Assembly: GCA_964373875.1 (NCBI GenBank)
Contig: CAYJWH010000003.1
Coordinates: forward strand, 1-42,894
From: an uncultured Candidatus Saccharibacteria bacterium
GTDB taxonomy: Bacteria; Patescibacteriota; Minisyncoccia; Sungbacterales; HO2-52-23
Reading direction: 5' to 3'
DNA length: 42,894 nucleotides
A model generated the notes under the pieces. It searched no databases. It saw only the letters and a list, made by a program, of their open reading frames with translations, and had not been told where the DNA came from. The position numbers were made by a program, and so were the translations under genes. The first letter of the stretch is position 1; each line of letters begins with the position of its first letter. This document shows positions 10,401-38,758 of this stretch, in pieces.

Positions 10401-10429
10401 TTGACTATGGGGTGATTTCAAGGTAAAAT
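10401..10429 (+). promoter_or_regulatory. Sigma-70-type promoter TTGACT-17-TAAAAT for nifS
   Basis: Exact 17-nt spacer; -10 ends 11 nt before ATG 10441; no SD. Confidence 0.5.
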
Positions 10430-10440
10430 TCAGCTACTTT

Positions 10441-11760
10441 ATGCGGGAAGTATATCTTGATCATGCGGCTACGACCTACCTTGATCCGCGAGTAAAGGAG
10501 GCGATGGAGCCGTACTGGGAGATAGAATATGGCAATCCATCGAGTCTTTATCGCTCGGGACGCAGGGCAAAGGACGGACTGGATGAAGCGCGCACAACTA
10601 TTGCGCGGATTTTGAATTGCAAACCGGAAGAAATAATTTTTACCGGCGGAGGTACAGAGGCGATAAATCTTGCTATCTTCGGCGTGGCCCGTTCCTATTC
10701 TAATGTTCTCAAGAACATTAGAATAGGAACGGCGGATGAGCATACGGCGTCTCGGGGCCATCTCATTACTTCCAAAATTGAGCACCACGCCGTACTTCAT
10801 TCAATGGAGGCGCTAAGCAAAGAAGGGTTTGAAGTTACTTACCTAGACGTGGATGAATATGGTTTGGTTGATCCGATAAATCTTCGTCAGGCAATTCGTC
10901 CGGACACGATTTTGGTATCAATAATGTACGCGAATAACGAGATTGGAACTATTGAACCCATTGAGGAAATTGGGAAAATAATTAAAGAAATCCGCGTAGA
11001 AAGAAAAGCCGCGGGCACCAGTACTCCGATATTTTTTCATACCGACGCTTGTCAGGCGGCTGGGTCTTTGGATATGGAAGTAGAAAAACTTGGGGTGGAT
11101 CTGCTTGCCTTCAACGGATCTAAAATTTATGGACCCAAAGGGGTTGGCGCGCTTTATATGCGCCGAGGTGTCAGAGTGAAGCCAATTATATACGGCGGAG
11201 GACAGGAAAATAATCTTCGCTCCGGAACGGAAAATGTCCCCGGGATAGTTGGGTTTGCCAAAGCGTTTGAGCTGGCGCAAAAAGAGCAAGAGAAAGAAAA
11301 TGAACGCCTGACAGAACTACGGGATTATCTTACGGGCCGGCTTCTAAAAGAAATTCCCAAAACGGTTCTCAACGGCCATCCCGTGAGGCGGCTTCCCAAT
11401 AACGTAAATGTTTCTGTCCTAGATATTGAAGGGGAGGGGGTTATTCTTTATTTGGATGCCAAAGGAGTTTATATTTCTACCGGATCGGCTTGCACTTCCA
11501 CCACTCTTGATCCCTCGCATGTGATTCTGGCCATCGGCCAGCCATATGAGTACGCGCACGGCTCTTTGCGCTTTACCTTGGGGAAAAGAACCACCAAAGA
11601 GGACCTCGATTATGTTATGGAAGTTTTCCCCGGAGTAGTGGAGAAATTGCGCAAAATGTCTCCGGTTCGCATGGAGGTCGGACAAAAAGAAGTTTCGCAT
11701 CCGGAAGCATTTGCCGGTCAGGGGTCAAAGATAAAAGTAGGAGGGAAGACGTACAAATAA
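10441..11760 (+). CDS. nifS: Cysteine desulfurase (NifS/IscS class, PLP-dependent) carrying an in-frame palindromic insertion
   Basis: HTDACQAAG, FNGSKIYGPKG (PLP Lys), SGSACTS (active Cys); extra about 15 aa at RSYSNVLKNIRIGT. Confidence 0.9.
   Translation: MREVYLDHAATTYLDPRVKEAMEPYWEIEYGNPSSLYRSGRRAKDGLDEARTTIARILNCKPEEIIFTGGGTEAINLAIFGVARSYSNVLKNIRIGTADEHTASRGHLITSKIEHHAVLHSMEALSKEGFEVTYLDVDEYGLVDPINLRQAIRPDTILVSIMYANNEIGTIEPIEEIGKIIKEIRVERKAAGTSTPIFFHTDACQAAGSLDMEVEKLGVDLLAFNGSKIYGPKGVGALYMRRGVRVKPIIYGGGQENNLRSGTENVPGIVGFAKAFELAQKEQEKENERLTELRDYLTGRLLKEIPKTVLNGHPVRRLPNNVNVSVLDIEGEGVILYLDAKGVYISTGSACTSTTLDPSHVILAIGQPYEYAHGSLRFTLGKRTTKEDLDYVMEVFPGVVEKLRKMSPVRMEVGQKEVSHPEAFAGQGSKIKVGGKTYK
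10689..10732. repeat. 44-bp near-perfect palindrome inside nifS
   Basis: CCGTTCCTATTCTAATGTTCT-ca-AGAACATTAGAATAGGAACGG; 21-bp arms; open in frame. Confidence 0.9.
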
Positions 11761-12855: not shown

Positions 12856-12955
12856 CCCCGTGCCACAACTAACGTGGATCTGGCATAAACTATAGATTAT
12901 AAGATAAATAACACAATCTAGTAAAAATTTATTTTACGAAGGTTGTGGCACAGGG
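12856..12955. repeat. Family-2-like TIR element (100 bp) ending 1 nt before the nifU ATG
   Basis: CCCCGTGCCACAAC ... GTTGTGGCACAGGG, 14-bp arms with 1 mismatch. Confidence 0.65.
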
Positions 12956-12956
12956 T

Positions 12957-13727
12957 ATGGAGCCAAATCCGAAAATTGATATAAACGCCGATGTCGTGAA
13001 CCAATTCACCCCGCACAAAACTTCAGCGACGGCTGAAGTTTTAGCGGGGCAAGCCGGCGAGAATAATATACAGCCAAAAGTAGATGTCAAAGCGGATGTC
13101 GTCAACCAGTTTACGGGCGAGAAATGGTACTACACGGATATCGTCAAAGAACATTTTTTCAATCCAAGAAATTTGATGCTTGAAGATCCGGACGAGTCGC
13201 AGTATCAGGCCACAGGCATGGTGGGGAGTCCAGCGTGCGGAGATATGATGAAGATGTGGTTGAAAATTGAGCCGGGTACGGAGAAAGTTAAAGAAATGAA
13301 ATGGCGTACGTTCGGCTGTGGTTCCGCAATTGCCGCCACCTCCATGTTTAGCGTAATGGTTACGGAAAATGACGGACTGCCAATCGGGGAAGCATTGAAA
13401 ATCAAGCCACAGCACATTATGGAACGCTTGGGCGGACTGCCGAATCGCAAGATTCACTGTTCCGTCCTCGCCGACAAAGCTTTTCGCAAAGCGGCTAATG
13501 ATTATTTTCGCAGGATGGGCCAAAACGAGCGTATTATGATAGAAGGAGCGCGGGTGATTGACGCGAAACTTAATATAACCGATAAAGATATTGAGGAGGC
13601 GGTACTGGAAGGCGCAATGGATTTGGACGGAGTGCAAAAAAAATTAAAAGTCGGCGTAGGGTCGCCTGAAATTATTACGGAGGTTGAACAACTAATAAGA
13701 TTTTACAAAGAGAAATATTATGGGTAA
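12957..13727 (+). CDS. nifU: NifU/IscU-type Fe-S scaffold with unusual N-terminal extension
   Basis: GSPACGD, FGCGSAIA, HCSVLA cluster-ligand motifs; the track's GTG 12945 start lies inside the repeat, so ATG 12957 is preferred. Confidence 0.85.
   Translation: MEPNPKIDINADVVNQFTPHKTSATAEVLAGQAGENNIQPKVDVKADVVNQFTGEKWYYTDIVKEHFFNPRNLMLEDPDESQYQATGMVGSPACGDMMKMWLKIEPGTEKVKEMKWRTFGCGSAIAATSMFSVMVTENDGLPIGEALKIKPQHIMERLGGLPNRKIHCSVLADKAFRKAANDYFRRMGQNERIMIEGARVIDAKLNITDKDIEEAVLEGAMDLDGVQKKLKVGVGSPEIITEVEQLIRFYKEKYYG
13017..13042 (+). repeat. Perfect hairpin inside the nifU N-terminal extension
   Basis: AAAACTTCAGC-gacg-GCTGAAGTTTT, 11-bp stem; encodes KTSATAEVL. Confidence 0.85.
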
Positions 13728-14819: not shown

Positions 14820-15413
14820 ATGTACGAACCAAAAAATTATGATCATTTGATAGGCACTCCCGGCTTTAGCGACCAGCTCCTTAAAAATCACTTTATCCTA
14901 TATCAGGGATATGTGAAAAATGTGAATACGATTTTACAGGAGCTCGAATCTATGTCCAAAGAAGGAAAAACAGGAACTCCCGCGTATGCCGAACTCCATA
15001 GAAGGTTTGGATGGGAATTTAACGGCATGCGCCTGCATGAATTGTATTTTGGCAACATGAAAAATGGGGGATCAAAACTCGATCCTGCCTCCAAACTGTG
15101 GGCGCAAATGGATAAAGATTTTGGCCCTAAACCTGCTTGGAGGAATGATTTTAAAGCGGTTGGCGCCATGCGCGGCATCGGCTGGGCTGTTTTATACTAT
15201 GATCCTGAAAGCAAAGAACTTTTTAACGTGTGGGTAAACGAGCATGACGTGGGGCATCTTGCCGGCGCCGTGCCATTGCTTGTCCTCGATATTTTTGAGC
15301 ATGCCTACGTTTTGGATTACGGGTTGAAACGCGCTGATTACATCGAGGCCTTTTTTGAAGCGATTGATTGGAGTATCGTGGAAACGAGGCTAAACCTCTA
15401 TAGCGGACTATAG
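14820..15413 (+). CDS. Fe/Mn-family superoxide dismutase; last 7 codons and the stop are supplied by REP sequence
   Basis: DIFEHAYVLDYG...DYIEAFF.AIDW C-terminal signature; NHF and RLHELYF His ligands. Confidence 0.8.
   Translation: MYEPKNYDHLIGTPGFSDQLLKNHFILYQGYVKNVNTILQELESMSKEGKTGTPAYAELHRRFGWEFNGMRLHELYFGNMKNGGSKLDPASKLWAQMDKDFGPKPAWRNDFKAVGAMRGIGWAVLYYDPESKELFNVWVNEHDVGHLAGAVPLLVLDIFEHAYVLDYGLKRADYIEAFFEAIDWSIVETRLNLYSGL
15382..15403 (-). repeat. REP copy (degenerate 5' arm), loop CTAAA
   Basis: aaacGAGG-CTAAA-CCTCTATAG; forms a doublet with 15408-15430. Confidence 0.7.
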
Positions 15414-15430
15414 AGGTTTAGCCTCTATAG
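15408..15430 (+). repeat. REP copy (perfect)
   Basis: CTATAGAGG-TTTAG-CCTCTATAG; contains the SOD stop TAG 15411-15413. Confidence 0.95.
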
Positions 15431-26347: not shown

Positions 26348-26370
26348 CTATAGAGGTTTAGCCTCTATAG
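26348..26370 (+). repeat. REP copy (perfect) spanning the RAYT stop codon
   Basis: CTATAGAGG-TTTAG-CCTCTATAG. Confidence 0.95.
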
Positions 26371-27042
26371 TGGATCTATGTATCCAGTGAGGAGGTTGAT
26401 ATCCTTCAAGGCCCATTCTTTGGTAAAGGATTCGTATTGAGATGAGTTGTATAGTTCACCCATCACCTCTTTATTGAGAATTAGCCCATAATTATTTTGC
26501 CCAATATAGTCAGAAAAACTTGACCACGGATAGCTTTTCACAAATTTATAGGACTCGTTCCAGTTTTTTACACCCTTTTCTTTCCAGTTAGGTTCTTTAA
26601 GTTCAAGGGGATTAAGATGAATGTATCGGGTAAGGTGAGTCAGATAGGTTTCTTCATCAATATGAATCGCCTTAAATGTACCTTGGAAGAGGGAACCGCT
26701 ACGTTGATATTTTGTATTGAAATACATAGTGTAGCCGGTACCCAGTTTTTGCATAAATTTTGAAATTCCGTTGTCTACCCTCTGCCGCAGTAATAGGTGA
26801 AAGTGATTAGACATAAGGCAAAAGCTCAAAATATCTACCATCATTTCCCGTTTCCTCTTCTCTATAGAGGCTAAACCTCTATAGTAGAACTGGGAATTTA
26901 GGAGCGGCTGGGTGTCGTTGCATGCATAGAGGAGATAGAGGAATCGTTGGTAGTCGTTCTTCTTGGTAAAAGTTATCCTCTTATCAACCCCGCGATTATA
27001 CACGTGGTAGTATTGCTCATTACTTAATTCAACTTTTCGCAT
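26365..27042 (-). CDS. REP-associated tyrosine transposase (RAYT; IS200-like Y1 HUH enzyme)
   Basis: YHVYNRG, HUH motif NHFHLLL, catalytic Tyr in TRYIHLNP; flanked by REPs; ATG at 27042 preferred over GTG 27051. Confidence 0.85.
   Translation of the reverse strand: MRKVELSNEQYYHVYNRGVDKRITFTKKNDYQRFLYLLYACNDTQPLLNSQFYYRGLASIEKRKREMMVDILSFCLMSNHFHLLLRQRVDNGISKFMQKLGTGYTMYFNTKYQRSGSLFQGTFKAIHIDEETYLTHLTRYIHLNPLELKEPNWKEKGVKNWNESYKFVKSYPWSSFSDYIGQNNYGLILNKEVMGELYNSSQYESFTKEWALKDINLLTGYIDPL
26862..26884 (-). repeat. REP copy (perfect) inside the RAYT coding sequence
   Basis: CTATAGAGG-CTAAA-CCTCTATAG; on the coding strand encodes YYRGLASI. Confidence 0.95.
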
Positions 27043-27050
27043 ACCTACCA

Positions 27051-27073
27051 CTATAGAGGTTTAGCCTCTATAG
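27051..27073 (+). repeat. REP copy (perfect) 8 nt upstream of the RAYT start
   Basis: CTATAGAGG-TTTAG-CCTCTATAG. Confidence 0.95.
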
Positions 27074-27092
27074 TCAAGTCTCTATAGTCAAG
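27066..27092 (+). repeat. Tandem duplication of the REP 3' arm plus flank (CTCTATAGTCAAG x2)
   Basis: Copies at 27066-27078 and 27080-27092. Confidence 0.8.
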
Positions 27093-35063: not shown

Positions 35064-35067
35064 TGAT

Positions 35068-35097
35068 AAAAACACGACAGGCGCCTGTCGTGTTTTT
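35068..35097 (+). terminator. Intrinsic terminator
   Basis: ACACGACAGGC/GCCTGTCGTGT hairpin followed by TTTTT. Confidence 0.85.
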
Positions 35098-35138
35098 AGT
35101 TTGACGAAGTCTGCCTGTTTTTGCTACTTTGTCTCCAT

Positions 35139-36566
35139 ATGCTTGTGACTCTTTTTGTTTTTATTTTCGCGCTATTCCCGTTGGCGGTTCTACACGCGGC
35201 TGAAGGAGATATAATTATTACGGAAATCATGTATGATCTTCCGGACGCTGACGGCATGAGAGAGTGGGTCGAAATCTATAACAGCGGAGCGGGGCCGGTA
35301 ACGGTTATCGGCGGATCTGGAAATAATACCTGGCGTTTACACGAGATCCACTCATCGGGACCGCACAACCATACGTTTGGAGCCGAGCCATCACAAGGAA
35401 GCATGACTCTATCCTCCGGGCAGTATGCCGTGATTGCTCAAAACGGAGAAGCATTTTTGGCGGATAATCCAAATTTTAGCAAGACAATTCTTATTTCTTC
35501 AGCTTTTTCTCTTACCAATACCAGCCAGACACTTGGTTTGCGAATTGGTTCATCGGGTACTGTCTGGAGCGGGGTAAATTACGCAAGTGAACTTGGCGCG
35601 CAAGGGGATGGGAAGTCGCTTCAGCTTATTGGTTCACAATGGGTCGCGGCATCTTCAACGCCCGGCGCTTTCAATAGTATTGAGACCACGCCCTCACCAT
35701 CTTCCTCCGAAGAAGGCGTGAGTGCGCCTCCGTCGGCTAGTGGAGCATCCGTAACAACACAATCAAAAATAACAATTGTATTTCCTTCCATCAAGGCCAA
35801 CTCCGGAGGAAACCGGACGGCAGTTGCGGGATCGCTCATTGAGTTCAAAGGTAACGCTTTAGGGCTAAAAGACGATCCGTTGGACAACGCTCGCTTTTGG
35901 TGGAATTTGGGGGATGGCAACTCAATCGAGGGAAGATCAATCTTGCATACTTTTAGAATTCCCGGAACTTACACGGTGGGCCTGCATGTGTCTTCTGGAG
36001 AATATGCCGCTTCGGACTATATAACCGTATCGGTTATTCCAAACCAACTGCGGGTCGCGGATGTTATACTTTTAGAAGACGGATATATCAAACTGGTGAA
36101 CAAAGAGAAAACCGAGATAGACCTTGGCGGATGGATTTTAGAAGATTCTTCCGGAAAGACGTTCACGATTCCCGTGAAAACCAAAATCGGTCCGCAAGCG
36201 GAAATTGCCCTGTTGAATTCGGTAACTTCCCTTTTTAAGTTCGTTGATTCCTCACGCGCGATTATCCGCTATCCAAACGGTAGGGAGGCCGTTAGATGGA
36301 GCGTGGATGCCAAAAGTTTAGTGTCTGACATCGGTACTACTGTTTCTCCGCGGGTTTTGACGGATGACGTCAATGTTAAAGATCGGGTGTCGGACATAGG
36401 GGAAGAAGACCCGGCGGCGGCTCCGGAACTTGTCCCCAAGCTCGGGTCGGAACAAGCCGCAGTGGCTGCCTCCGGAATAAGCTCTAAATTGTTTTTCTTG
36501 CTTGCCGCCGTTTTTAGCGTTCTCGCGTCTGTCGGCTTCTTCCTCGTCAAAAAGAAATATTTCTGA
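35139..36566 (+). CDS. Surface protein: lamin-tail domain, PKD domain, second LTD-like domain, C-terminal TM anchor
   Basis: ITEIMYDLPDADGMREWVEIYN (LTD); WNLGDGNS...GTYTVGLHV (PKD); IDLGGWILEDSSG; C-terminal hydrophobic helix. Confidence 0.75.
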   Translation: MLVTLFVFIFALFPLAVLHAAEGDIIITEIMYDLPDADGMREWVEIYNSGAGPVTVIGGSGNNTWRLHEIHSSGPHNHTFGAEPSQGSMTLSSGQYAVIAQNGEAFLADNPNFSKTILISSAFSLTNTSQTLGLRIGSSGTVWSGVNYASELGAQGDGKSLQLIGSQWVAASSTPGAFNSIETTPSPSSSEEGVSAPPSASGASVTTQSKITIVFPSIKANSGGNRTAVAGSLIEFKGNALGLKDDPLDNARFWWNLGDGNSIEGRSILHTFRIPGTYTVGLHVSSGEYAASDYITVSVIPNQLRVADVILLEDGYIKLVNKEKTEIDLGGWILEDSSGKTFTIPVKTKIGPQAEIALLNSVTSLFKFVDSSRAIIRYPNGREAVRWSVDAKSLVSDIGTTVSPRVLTDDVNVKDRVSDIGEEDPAAAPELVPKLGSEQAAVAASGISSKLFFLLAAVFSVLASVGFFLVKKKYF

Positions 36567-38758
36567 TGCAAAAACCGAAAATTCTTATCTTTACCACCTC
36601 CTACCACCCATTTATAGGAGGTGCCGAAATAGCTGTCCAGGAAATTACCAGGCGCCTGAAAGAGCGCTTTGATTTTTATATTGTAACTTCCCGATTTCGC
36701 CGTGATCTGCCCAAGAGAGAAATAAGACCGGAGGGGATCGTCCTAAGAATAGGATTTGGCAATCGGCTGGATAAATATTTGCTTATCTTAGCCCCCTTTT
36801 ACTATAGAGGTTTAGCCTCTATAGTGCTGGGGGTGGATATCTCCCAGGCGTCGGTAGCCGCGGCAATTTACAAAATTCTCAATCCAAGAACTCCTTTTGT
36901 ATTAAATATCCAATTTGGCGAGAGCGAGGAGCGGCTTTCTTCCGGACGGGCAGGAATCATATCTGTTATGTTTCGTTTTATCCTCGGCCGGGCGGACTTT
37001 GTGACGGCCATCTCGAGCTATCTTCTAAATATCGCGAGAAGCTATGGATACAAAGGGCCGGCAGGGGCAGTACCTAATGGAGTAGATGTCTCAAAATTCC
37101 AAAACACAAAACACAAATCACAAACTAATCATAAAATAGTAATTACGACCGGGAGACTAGTCCGTAAAAACGGCGTCGATATTTTAATAAAGGCGATTGC
37201 CGAGATAAAAAAAAGTATCCCGGATGTTCGGCTGCATATAGTCGGCAATGGCCTGGAACGTAAGAATCTTGAGTTGCAAGTTTCAAATTACAAACTGCAA
37301 GAAAACGTAACGTTTTTAGGCAGTGTTTCCCATGAAGAAGTTCCACGGCACTTGCATGAGGCAGACCTCTTTGTCCGTCCTTCGCGCTCCGAAGGCATGG
37401 GCAACTCTTTTATAGAGGCCCTTGCGGCCGGTCTGCCAATAATCGGAACTCCGGTGGGCGGAATTTTAGATATAATTGAGGATGAAAAAACCGGGCTTTT
37501 TTGCAATCCCGAAGATCCGCGGGATTTGGCCGAGAAAATTACTCGGCTCCTGCAAGATAAAGCTCTCTCCTCCAATATAGCGGCTCAAGGCAAAAAAATG
37601 GTTGAGGATAGATTTTCTTGGGATAAAATTGCTGAAGCATACGCCGAGTTACTATCGAGGTTTAGCCTCTATAGTGAGGCTAAACCTCTGCGTATTTTGG
37701 TCGCGACTCCGTTGCTGCCGCCGCAGATAGGAGGCCCCGCTCAATATGCCAGACATTTATCCGAAGAATTTTTAAAACTTGAACAGAAAGTAAAAGTAAT
37801 TTCTTTTGGAAAATATCTGCGTTATCCAAGCGGAATCCGCCATCTGCTTTATTTATGGGCACTTGCCATACACGCGATAAAAAGCGATCTCATATTCGCG
37901 TTGGATTATACAAGCGTTGGGTTTCCGGCGGCTATAGTTTCTCTGATTTTTAGAAGGCCACTAGTGATTAGAGTTGAAGGCGATTTTCTTTGGGAAAGCT
38001 TTGTGGAGCGCGCGCGACAGGATATAATTCTAAGGGAGTTCTATAAAAATCCTCCCTCCCTCACGCCAAAAGAAAGGCTGGTTAAATGGCTTTCGGGTTG
38101 GGTGATGCGACGTGCCTCAAAACTCGTCTTTTCTTCCGAATGGAGGCGGTCTATGGTTGTTGATGCTTATAAGATTCCTTCAGAGAAAACTTTAATAATC
38201 CGCAACGTCTTTCCATATTCGGTAGCGCTAGAGCCTAGAGCCTATAGCCTAGAGCCCAGAATTATCCTTTGGGCTGGCCGGATGCTCTACCTTAAAAATC
38301 TCCAGCGCCTGATTAGGGCATTTGCAAACATGAACGTTTCATCTTACGAACTTCATCTCGTTGGGGAAGGACCGGAGAGAAAAAATCTTGAGCGCCTCAT
38401 AAACGAATATCACGCTGGGAGCCGCATAAAATTTTTTGATTCAATGGATCACGGGAAGCTCATGGACAAACTTGCTTCTTCAACGGCAGTTGTATTGCCG
38501 TCTCTTTCCGATGTCGGCCCAAATATAGTTACCGAAGCAATTAGCGCGGGCGTACCGGTAATCATGACTAAAGAATCCGGACATGCGGAGATTTTTCATC
38601 ACAAAGTTGAGTTGGTCAATCCGTTGGATGAGGGTGATTTGCGCCGGAAACTCGAAAAATTAATGAGAGAACCCGCAGAACGAGTTGTATCCGCATTCAC
38701 GATCCGACCGTGGGTTACTGCTGCCAAAGAGTGGATTAGTTTATTTAAGTCTCTATGA
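36566..38758 (+). CDS. Fused double GT4-family glycosyltransferase (two complete GT-B units joined through a REP doublet)
   Basis: Unit 1 has the EGMGNSFIEALAAGLPIIGT motif. Unit 2 begins RILVATPLLPPQIGGPAQ right after the REP doublet and has SDVGPNIVTEAISAGVPVI. Confidence 0.8.
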   Translation: MQKPKILIFTTSYHPFIGGAEIAVQEITRRLKERFDFYIVTSRFRRDLPKREIRPEGIVLRIGFGNRLDKYLLILAPFYYRGLASIVLGVDISQASVAAAIYKILNPRTPFVLNIQFGESEERLSSGRAGIISVMFRFILGRADFVTAISSYLLNIARSYGYKGPAGAVPNGVDVSKFQNTKHKSQTNHKIVITTGRLVRKNGVDILIKAIAEIKKSIPDVRLHIVGNGLERKNLELQVSNYKLQENVTFLGSVSHEEVPRHLHEADLFVRPSRSEGMGNSFIEALAAGLPIIGTPVGGILDIIEDEKTGLFCNPEDPRDLAEKITRLLQDKALSSNIAAQGKKMVEDRFSWDKIAEAYAELLSRFSLYSEAKPLRILVATPLLPPQIGGPAQYARHLSEEFLKLEQKVKVISFGKYLRYPSGIRHLLYLWALAIHAIKSDLIFALDYTSVGFPAAIVSLIFRRPLVIRVEGDFLWESFVERARQDIILREFYKNPPSLTPKERLVKWLSGWVMRRASKLVFSSEWRRSMVVDAYKIPSEKTLIIRNVFPYSVALEPRAYSLEPRIILWAGRMLYLKNLQRLIRAFANMNVSSYELHLVGEGPERKNLERLINEYHAGSRIKFFDSMDHGKLMDKLASSTAVVLPSLSDVGPNIVTEAISAGVPVIMTKESGHAEIFHHKVELVNPLDEGDLRRKLEKLMREPAERVVSAFTIRPWVTAAKEWISLFKSL
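36802..36824 (+). repeat. REP copy (perfect) inserted in frame in GT unit 1
   Basis: Codons 36800-36823 read YYRGLASI, identical to the peptide encoded by the REP inside the RAYT gene. Confidence 0.95.
37652..37674 (+). repeat. REP copy (1 mismatch: CTATCGAGG)
   Basis: At the junction of the two GT units. Confidence 0.9.
37672..37690 (-). repeat. Degenerate REP copy (GAGG-CTAAA-CCTCT) forming a doublet
   Basis: Shares TAG with the preceding copy; reads through as SEAKPL. Confidence 0.65.
38228..38255 (+). repeat. Tandem heptamer (CTAGAGC)x4, third unit CTATAGC
   Basis: Inside GT unit 2, encoding ALEPRAYSLEP. Confidence 0.85.

Follow-up and report, generated by a model that had tools for sequence, protein, structure and literature searches.

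What is a 44-bp palindrome doing inside the reading frame of an essential enzyme? The question is raised by the window analysed here, the whole 42,894-nt stretch of contig CAYJWH010000003.1, in which such a sequence (10689-10732) lies in frame within a gene for a NifS-type cysteine desulfurase. The names of the sources of its closest homologs place the window in Candidatus Sungbacteria (Patescibacteria, or candidate phyla radiation, CPR). We find that it represents one copy of a dispersed palindromic repeat, short in length, that occurs widely among Parcubacteria-type CPR bacteria, and that it very probably stands in nifS as a member of this repeat family inserted in frame. As to the repeat itself, its genomic company makes it likely, on balance, that it is the binding site of a small ArsR-type winged-helix protein.

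The palindrome, delimited by arm comparison, window search and folding, consists of two 21-nt arms, 10689-10709 (CCGTTCCTATTCTAATGTTCT) and 10712-10732 (AGAACATTAGAATAGGAACGG), which enclose the dinucleotide CA. An earlier note on this DNA had correctly placed a 44-bp palindrome in frame in nifS but called it near-perfect; the arms are in fact 100% complementary (21-2-21). Folded as single-stranded DNA, the element reaches -20.8 kcal/mol (z = -8.4), and folded as RNA -33.1 kcal/mol (z = -8.0), with none of 200 shuffles as good in either case. No other match to the 21-mer was found in the window with up to 3 mismatches allowed, and shuffled windows gave none. Among the window's long palindromes it alone lies well inside a gene, the copies of a second repeat family described below excepted. 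Rfam and tRNA scans returned nothing at the site, and the scan for promoter- and terminator-like signals gave none at the palindrome itself; the promoter-like site of nifS was called upstream, on the plus strand (TTGACT-17-TAAAAT, 10401-10429).

Within the 44 bp, the core shared with the repeat family (CTATTCTAATGTTCT-ca-AGAACATTAGAATAG, 15-2-15, 10695-10726, pattern match from 10697) is framed by an outer extension of 6 bp, all of these being features without a strand of their own. In the ortholog alignment, the left part of this extension, CCGTTC (10689-10694), corresponds to the native codons A83-R84-S85, of which S85 is unusual (orthologs have F, M or H at that position), and the right part, GAACGG (10727-10732), is the complement of this native flank. 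Relatives with the same 32-bp core have CATCAC, AACTTC or CGTCAC instead of the CCGTTC/GAACGG pair, which among these carriers of the core occurs in the window alone; GAACGG is probably a secondary addition specific to the window's lineage.

The host gene (10441-11760, plus strand) was assigned by family, structure and ortholog matches to the NifS/IscS-type class I cysteine desulfurases. Its 439-aa product has NifS TIGR03402 as best family match (492 bits, below the 530.75 cutoff), matches PF00266 (Aminotran_5 fold) and finds its best solved homolog in PDB 9wep (E = 1e-116). The catalytic residues are intact: the pyridoxal phosphate lysine K228, the catalytic cysteine C351 and H116 are invariant across 60 orthologs. 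The palindrome lies between the GGTEAINLAIFG.AR.Y block and the HLITSKIEHHAVL block of NifS, and the coding segment at this place (S87-G106, SNVLKNIRIGTADEHTASRG, 10699-10758, plus strand) reads SNVLKNIRI.... As the earlier note had estimated, about 15 residues are added where homologs have a short loop: 20 residues replace the 5-residue KDQGK of the uninserted allele, a net gain of 15 codons, and 9wep shows a 15-residue gap at the site. In the AlphaFold model of the host protein (predicted local distance difference test score 77.6, predicted template-modelling score 0.82), the insert peptide prolongs helix 71-93, continues as a low-confidence loop and is followed by strand 107-111. The near-identical peptide (RRSYSNVLENIRIGTG) that the same note had seen on the opposite strand is indeed encoded there, by an open reading frame (ORF) from the ORF list at 10405-10800 on the minus strand; it is a trivial by-product of the palindrome's symmetry, and we do not take this ORF as a gene.

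To place the insert among its orthologs, the 60 closest NifS proteins (65-89% identity overall) were aligned. The stretch between FG.AR.Y and HLITSKIEHHAVL is hypervariable: 24 orthologs have a short loop (ARFYKDQGK-H) that agrees with solved NifS/IscS structures, 12 have a palindrome-type peptide (YSNVLKNIRIG..., YSQILKNLRIG..., YSNILKNVGM...) and the remaining 24 have inserts of other kinds. When the site is masked, a neighbour-joining tree shows the three states intermingled. The closest ortholog of all, P0002 (89% identity, 424 aa), is without the insert and reads ...ARFYKDQGK-HLITSK.... The earlier note had reasoned that an old loop would be indicated if all close orthologs had the same segment in non-palindromic DNA; the site proved polymorphic instead, and a hairpin is found at the same nifS spot in every palindrome-type ortholog. 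Between lineages both arms change, from AATGTTCT on the left and AGAACATT on the right in the window to CAAATTCT and AGAATTTG in locus L082 and TACTCTC and GAGAGTA in L086.

At the DNA level, the window and the empty allele are 84-97% identical over the 3' two-thirds of nifS, and this identity falls to 69-81% around the insert, which is no better than to distant relatives, suggesting a recombination tract. From the absence of the element in the closest ortholog and this mosaic similarity we conclude that recombination brought about its gain, loss or exchange, and that it is not an inherited part of an old loop. Judged from the sequences, the loop is generally permissive, since other lineages have different hairpins and tandem repeats there. 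At this hotspot, L017 (10265-10310) carries a palindrome CCGTTCCAGACT-a-AGTCTGGAACGG together with a second partial copy and has the outer CCGTTCC/GGAACGG in common with the window; this different palindrome (CCAGACTAAGTCTGG) is not dispersed among the loci compared. L212 (3062-3208) has a G7...C6 hairpin, and L213 (747-833) an (AAATCCC)n tandem repeat.

Copies elsewhere were sought by running a degenerate pattern covering the ortholog variants, ATTCYNANNTTCTNNAGAANNTNRGAAT, on metagenome contigs. The pattern returned at least 148 copies in at least 120 contigs from dozens of metagenomes, with up to 5 copies per contig. None of 2.9 million viral contigs gave a match, and the element is therefore not phage-borne. 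Nearly all copies have a 2-nt centre between arms of 13-15 nt, and the family consensus, (A)ACATTCyNAyrTTCT-nn-AGAAyrTNrGAATGT(T), extends beyond the search pattern. The window's nifS copy belongs to a TATTC...GAATA subtype, and its exact variant (ATTCTAATGTTCT..AGAACATTAGAAT) occurs at sites other than nifS in L104, L127, L148, L173, L178 and L205: in L173 (8840), at a site upstream of an ArsR-type gene of ERIVKG-like type, the 15-nt core arms are matched in full, and the other five share the inner 13-nt arms. In two relatives, intergenic copies lie less than 2 kb from the nifS copy: that of L087 is AACATTCCAACATTCT-tg-AGAATGTTGGAATGTT, flanked by two genes and situated 1 kb upstream of its nifS copy, and L082 has a similar one.

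A crude ORF test put 102 of the 148 listed metagenome copies (about 70%) between genes, 44 within open frames of at least 100 codons and 2 in or next to nifS, and greedy gene calls put 26 inside genes, 66 between tandem, 19 between convergent and 15 between divergent genes. The copies cluster near gene starts and ends, many of them 15-30 nt past gene ends. No common function links the genes whose starts lie just downstream of intergenic copies, and we accordingly rejected a themed regulon; together with the convergent placements this fits indiscriminate spread better. Local clusters of copies were also seen: four palindromes in 2 kb of L119 (8448-10410) are all asymmetric in one way, with CCAAC in the left arm and CTCAC, or a sequence close to it, in the right, and five different variants in 11 kb of L151 (2532-13071) adjoin two ArsR-type genes.

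NifS is not the only protein in which the palindrome is translated. Copies lie in frame in UvrB, TsaD, MnmA, TruB, Fmt, a PurN-like formyltransferase, Lgt and an M24 peptidase, each time with the peptide (H/Y)SN(I/V)LxN(I/V)(G/R)(M/I); a second frame (FSxSxE) is used in UvrC and Dus and a third in two reverse transcriptases. The three frames account for 11, 4 and 6 in-gene copies, the 11 being those with the (H/Y)SN(I/V)LxN(I/V)(G/R)(M/I) peptide, and four of the six third-frame ORFs look spurious (three antisense to the regulator gene described below, plus L144). With in-frame copies in at least 10 other housekeeping genes, the likeness to Rickettsia palindromic elements (RPEs) put forward in the earlier note has held in a different lineage, as have the ortholog polymorphism and the position at a modelled helix end and loop that it had proposed to check. 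Compared with solved structures, the palindrome peptide is a clean insertion of about 12 residues in TsaD and falls in a variable loop in MnmA; in UvrB (L193, about 2333), HSNILENIGM aligns residue by residue with the native FFGEEIDRIT of solved UvrB without change in length. A 166-aa protein in L151 (about 3117) ends in a palindrome-encoded ...HSNILQNVRIL*.

A further regularity concerns the company that the palindrome keeps. Pairs of palindromes about 310 bp apart enclose a gene for a winged-helix protein of about 90 aa whose Pfam match is HTH_5 (ArsR family). With a profile built from such proteins, 38 ORFs were found in 36 of the 120 contigs, which had been listed by the palindrome pattern alone, the regulator being no part of the selection. 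The ArsR-type start codon has a palindrome 10-90 nt upstream of it in 22 metagenome cases, and in 18 cases one lies over the stop codon, so placed that a palindrome arm encodes the C-terminus and the stop (...RTF*, ...TFSHS*, ...RILE*). Such C-termini were seen in L209 (2303-2340), L169, L180, L161, L102, L124, L195, L162, L200 and L205; taken with the end of the L151 protein, they indicate that the repeat can supply C-termini and not just internal segments. The arrangement is clearly seen in the Sungbacteria loci L209-211, where a perfect 40-bp palindrome precedes the ArsR-type gene, its right arm forming the -35-like hexamer of a promoter-like site (TTGGAA-17-TG-TATGAT) that ends 9 nt before the ATG, and a perfect 38-bp palindrome after the gene holds the stop codon and runs into T9.

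The regulator family comprises at least 809 clusters, whose named sources are all CPR (Sungbacteria, Giovannonibacteria, Liptonbacteria and other Parcubacteria/Patescibacteria groups). Its members are small DNA-binding proteins of 88-99 aa without a catalytic domain, and the example sequences have neither cysteines nor an obvious metal site. The subtype of the palindrome co-varies with that of the regulator: the arms next to ER[HY]FKG genes are mostly of the CATTC type (41:9), those next to ERIVKG genes mostly of the TATTC type (16:2), with a Fisher p = 1.5e-7 that ignores shared ancestry. The window is without an ArsR-type gene, so that the partner in this genome is a predicted one. The Rrf2 regulator found upstream of nifS in relatives was considered as a partner and rejected, as it belongs to a different family and is not the palindrome-flanked gene.

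We next asked at which level the palindrome is constrained. Across nifS, L082, L084 and L085 are 72-77% identical, and 45-53% identical at third codon positions; their palindromes are identical at 32 of 32 positions, including 11 of 11 third positions. Protein-level selection on a surface segment cannot explain this conservation of third positions, and nucleotide-level conservation of the nifS copy speaks for a function at the DNA level or for active homogenisation, and against a selfish insert in decay. Mismatches within the stems are G-U and A-C on the sense strand in similar numbers (13 v 15 inside genes, 18 v 22 at 3' ends), and this lack of a G-U bias argues for constraint on DNA rather than on RNA. 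The nifS stem is followed by CGGATGAG, with neither a T-run nor a terminator call. Specific bases (ATTC, TTCT, flanking AC or CT) are conserved over distant lineages. Moreover, in 74 of 142 distinct copies the four variable inner positions match between the arms (16.9 +/- 3.5 when shuffled), and the flanks outside the core are symmetric in 75 of the 142 (28.9 when shuffled). Such symmetry beyond the half-sites requires selection at the level of a hairpin or cruciform, correction of one arm with the other as template, or spread from master copies that are themselves perfect.

The window also contains a second, lineage-specific repeat, a 23-nt hairpin CTATAGAGG-tttag-CCTCTATAG with nine exact 13-mer matches at 7 sites in 43 kb against 0.9 expected (15386-15425, 26353, 26867, 27056, 35046, 36807 and 37657-37688), which is almost absent from the other 213 loci. 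Copies lie at the stop codons of genes for superoxide dismutase (SOD) and a tetratricopeptide-repeat protein. One unit stands on each side of, and one in frame inside (peptide FYYRGLASIE), a 228-aa RAYT-like gene (ORF 26365-27051, minus strand, region 26353-27080), RAYT denoting a REP-associated tyrosine transposase and REP a repetitive extragenic palindrome; its product matches Y1_Tnp, and 'REP-associated tyrosine transposase' below cutoff. Sequence match and layout mark it as a REP-RAYT arrangement of the classical kind, here in a CPR genome. A 730-aa ORF encoding a double GT4 glycosyltransferase (36566-38758, plus strand) has one unit in frame in its first half (36807, FYYRGLASIV) and a double unit as linker (37657-37688, SRFSLYSEAKPL), as might result if read-through of an intergenic REP had fused two genes. 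In-frame palindromic repeats of at least two independent families are thus tolerated by the genome of the window, which strengthens the case for the nifS element as an inserted repeat.

Taken together, these results suggest an explanation to which we give moderate confidence as a whole: a dispersed CPR repeat would be the recognition site of an ArsR-type protein, and one copy lies in a permissive loop of nifS. This copy very probably entered, or was exchanged into, the permissive helix end and loop, where it is translated and leaves the catalytic residues intact. The palindrome would be recognised by the ArsR-type protein of about 90 aa that is conserved over these lineages, whose own gene has one palindrome over the -35 region, in a geometry that would suit autorepression, and often a second over the stop codon. 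In-gene copies, including that of nifS, may persist as intact duplex sites or as hairpin-capable DNA, kept either by selected binding (as an intragenic operator or roadblock) or by DNA-level correction between arms and between copies. The outer extension from 32 to 44 bp would probably be local, through arm-to-arm templated correction against the native ARS codons. That the nifS copy itself has a regulatory role we consider possible but doubtful. We are just as hesitant about a broader proposal, namely that the operator of a CPR-wide minimal ArsR-type protein has turned into a self-propagating repeat, some copies of which are selected in the loops of essential enzymes as intragenic operators or roadblocks. 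If this were true, genes for Fe-S cluster assembly, tRNA modification and DNA repair would be tied to one global DNA-binding protein, and new peptide segments would arise as a by-product.

Several observations weigh against this explanation. The pairing of the ArsR-type protein with the palindrome is drawn from genomic association, and the subtype co-variation may in part reflect shared ancestry of the gene and its neighbouring DNA. A tblastn search for the ArsR-type gene in the 43-kb window and the Sungbacteria nifS loci found none, as is unsurprising for 20-40 kb samples of genomes of about 1 Mb, and the nifS copy is the window's only member of the palindrome family. A dimer on two half-sites does not by itself predict that the arms agree at variable positions. 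The copies between convergent genes (19) and the unrelated functions of the genes downstream of copies suit indiscriminate spread better than they do a themed regulon, and about a quarter of the other copies (38 of 146) resemble terminators, being followed by a T-run. Native residues of UvrB and NifS are replaced by the element, which is thus not plainly added, and no transposase, target-site duplication or other trace of insertion was found for the family.

The most serious alternative, which we nevertheless rate as rather unlikely, is that of a purely selfish palindrome of REP or RPE type whose nifS copy has no function and is merely tolerated by the loop, the ArsR-type gene being its 'home' locus or a factor for its propagation or protection, the part that RAYT plays for REPs. 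Its multicopy, dispersed presence in all intergenic contexts, convergent ones included, and among unrelated neighbours is what such an element would show, as is its occurrence in frame in many genes, known also for RPEs (PMC10969869). The in-frame units of the window's own REP-RAYT system show that the genome tolerates such insertions, and the nifS loop also takes tandem repeats and other hairpins. However, the third positions of the nifS palindrome are perfectly kept although the nifS genes are 23-28% divergent, and a neutral passenger should therefore have decayed unless continually homogenised; nor is a transposase linked to the family, the flanked gene encoding a small DNA-binding protein without a catalytic domain. 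An RNA hairpin, acting as a terminator, as a processing or stability signal or as a translational pause in the nifS mRNA, would account for the very stable RNA fold (-33 kcal/mol, z = -8) and the co-varying arms, for the 38 of 146 copies with a T-run, for the L209 stop-codon copy, a 19-bp stem followed by T9, and for the many copies 15-30 nt after gene ends. We hold it to be improbable, since the mismatches have no G-U preference on the sense strand, the nifS copy has neither a T-run nor a terminator call, a terminator there would truncate an essential enzyme, the base-specific conservation (ATTC, TTCT, flanking AC/CT) exceeds the needs of structure, and the palindrome tracks the regulator subtype.

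Two further alternatives bear on how the segment arose. Template switching or fold-back replication within nifS could have copied adjacent codons inverted, without any outside element: the native A-R-S-Y codons overlap with the left arm and have their exact complement in the right one, and flank symmetry outside the core is above chance across the family. The 15-nt core arms are, however, identical at unlinked loci, in other genes and in other genomes, and relatives have the core without the outer 6 bp, so that local templating explains just the extension from 32 to 44 bp; a purely local origin, very improbable for the palindrome as a whole, was accordingly rejected for the core and retained for the outer 6 bp. 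We see hardly any chance that the segment is an ancestral Sungbacteria NifS loop or an artefact of assembly. Several orthologs do have related peptides at the same site, but the ortholog comparison refutes an ancestral loop: the KDQGK-type short loop fits solved structures and is found in 24 of 60 orthologs, the nearest among them, and the states are scattered on the tree. The same feature is present, moreover, in independent assemblies from NCBI, JGI, ENA and Logan.

Some further observations concern nifS, its neighbours and other hairpins of the window. Translational bypass or excision of the segment is unsupported, as the inserts examined in full-length ortholog proteins are all in frame and stop-free, although this evidence is weak because a protein database would hide disrupted alleles. 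A second variable loop of nifS (alignment columns ~585-620, about 11015-11030 in the window) holds short tandem repeats in relatives (CTACAAC in L084, CCCTAAACCCTATA in L087), and L082 alone has a third in-frame insert of ~75 nt (columns 963-1037) with a GC-rich hairpin CCCGCCTCCGGAGGGCGGG. The gene order around nifS is AhpC, membrane protein, nifS, nifU, PIN and SOD. In several Sungbacteria relatives, NifU is enlarged (363-643 aa) and has LAGLIDADG_3 or Intein_splicing matches (L085 3758-5557, L087 12116-14047, L213 2331-3422), so that it probably carries an intein; the NifU of the window (12945-13727, 260 aa) has no such matches. Further perfect or near-perfect hairpins, unrelated to the repeats above, lie between genes at 980-1013, 1114-1141, 2068-2102, 2253-2283 and 35067-35098; two of them bracket tRNA-Thr (2108-2180), and all five are probably ordinary terminators.

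CPR bacteria make up a large share of bacterial diversity and have tiny genomes with few known regulators or mobile elements. A conserved and abundant palindromic repeat that reshapes essential protein sequences in these genomes, as RPEs do in Rickettsia, would mean that repeat-driven protein innovation recurs among reduced genomes and is no peculiarity of Rickettsia, and its link to a highly conserved small winged-helix protein offers a protein-DNA pair open to direct test in bacteria that are difficult to grow. For the annotation of metagenome-assembled genomes, the motif (H/Y)SN(I/V)LxN(I/V)(G/R)(M/I) and the DNA consensus can flag repeat-derived insertions in conserved genes; the repeats probably also give rise to breaks in assemblies. 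Literature searches on CPR palindromic elements and on the motif sequence found no description of the element.

How, then, does the element compare with known systems? ArsR/SmtB-family operators are imperfect 12-2-12 inverted repeats, and the palindrome resembles them as an inverted repeat with a 2-nt centre over the -35 region of the regulator's own promoter-like site. It differs in having many copies per genome, coding and convergent intergenic ones included, a minimal regulator, and arms that are symmetric beyond the needs of half-site recognition; to our knowledge, no operator family is so numerous or sits in coding regions. CIRCE (controlling inverted repeat of chaperone expression) is likewise a long perfect inverted repeat with a dedicated repressor, HrcA, whose own operon carries it, and is said to act at both the DNA and the mRNA level. 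As far as we know, it is confined to a few chaperone promoters and does not occur inside coding sequences, and no link to heat-shock genes was seen among the genes downstream of the listed palindrome copies. With REPs, which are extragenic by definition, and REPINs the family has in common that its palindromes are short (20-40 nt), that most of them lie outside genes, frequently at 3' ends, and that two copies flank one particular gene. The flanked gene, however, encodes a 90-aa winged-helix protein and not a Y1 transposase, and no RAYT homolog was found among all ORFs of the 120 listed contigs by phmmer with the window's RAYT as sole query.

Intragenic MITEs (miniature transposable elements with inverted repeats) such as ERIC, Correia/NEMIS and QMITE1 are small non-autonomous repeats that occur within ORFs and are translated as in-frame fusions (PMC10969869). 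The nifS-type element shares with them its small size, its place in ORFs and its translation; it is, however, a single hairpin, unlike MITEs, which measure 100-400 bp and have terminal inverted repeats and target-site duplications, and comparison of the nifS element with the empty allele showed 5 codons replaced and no target-site duplication. Closest in behaviour are the RPEs, elements of ~150 bp found in frame inside genes (PMC10969869). Like them, the palindromes form a repeated family that lies in frame in unrelated housekeeping genes, encodes a conserved peptide at tolerant places and is polymorphic among orthologs. The likeness is one of behaviour and not of length or lineage: the nifS-type core measures 28-32 bp, and 44 bp in the window, the longest perfect copy, against ~150 bp for RPEs, and RPEs are restricted to Rickettsia, whereas the palindrome belongs to CPR bacteria (Candidatus Sungbacteria/Parcubacteria). 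Its copies are, in addition, mostly intergenic and come with an ArsR-type partner gene and nucleotide-level conservation inside a host gene. Overall, what sets the element apart from RPEs is its short length, an ArsR-type regulator instead of a transposase as partner, and the conservation of the nifS copy at the level of the nucleotides.

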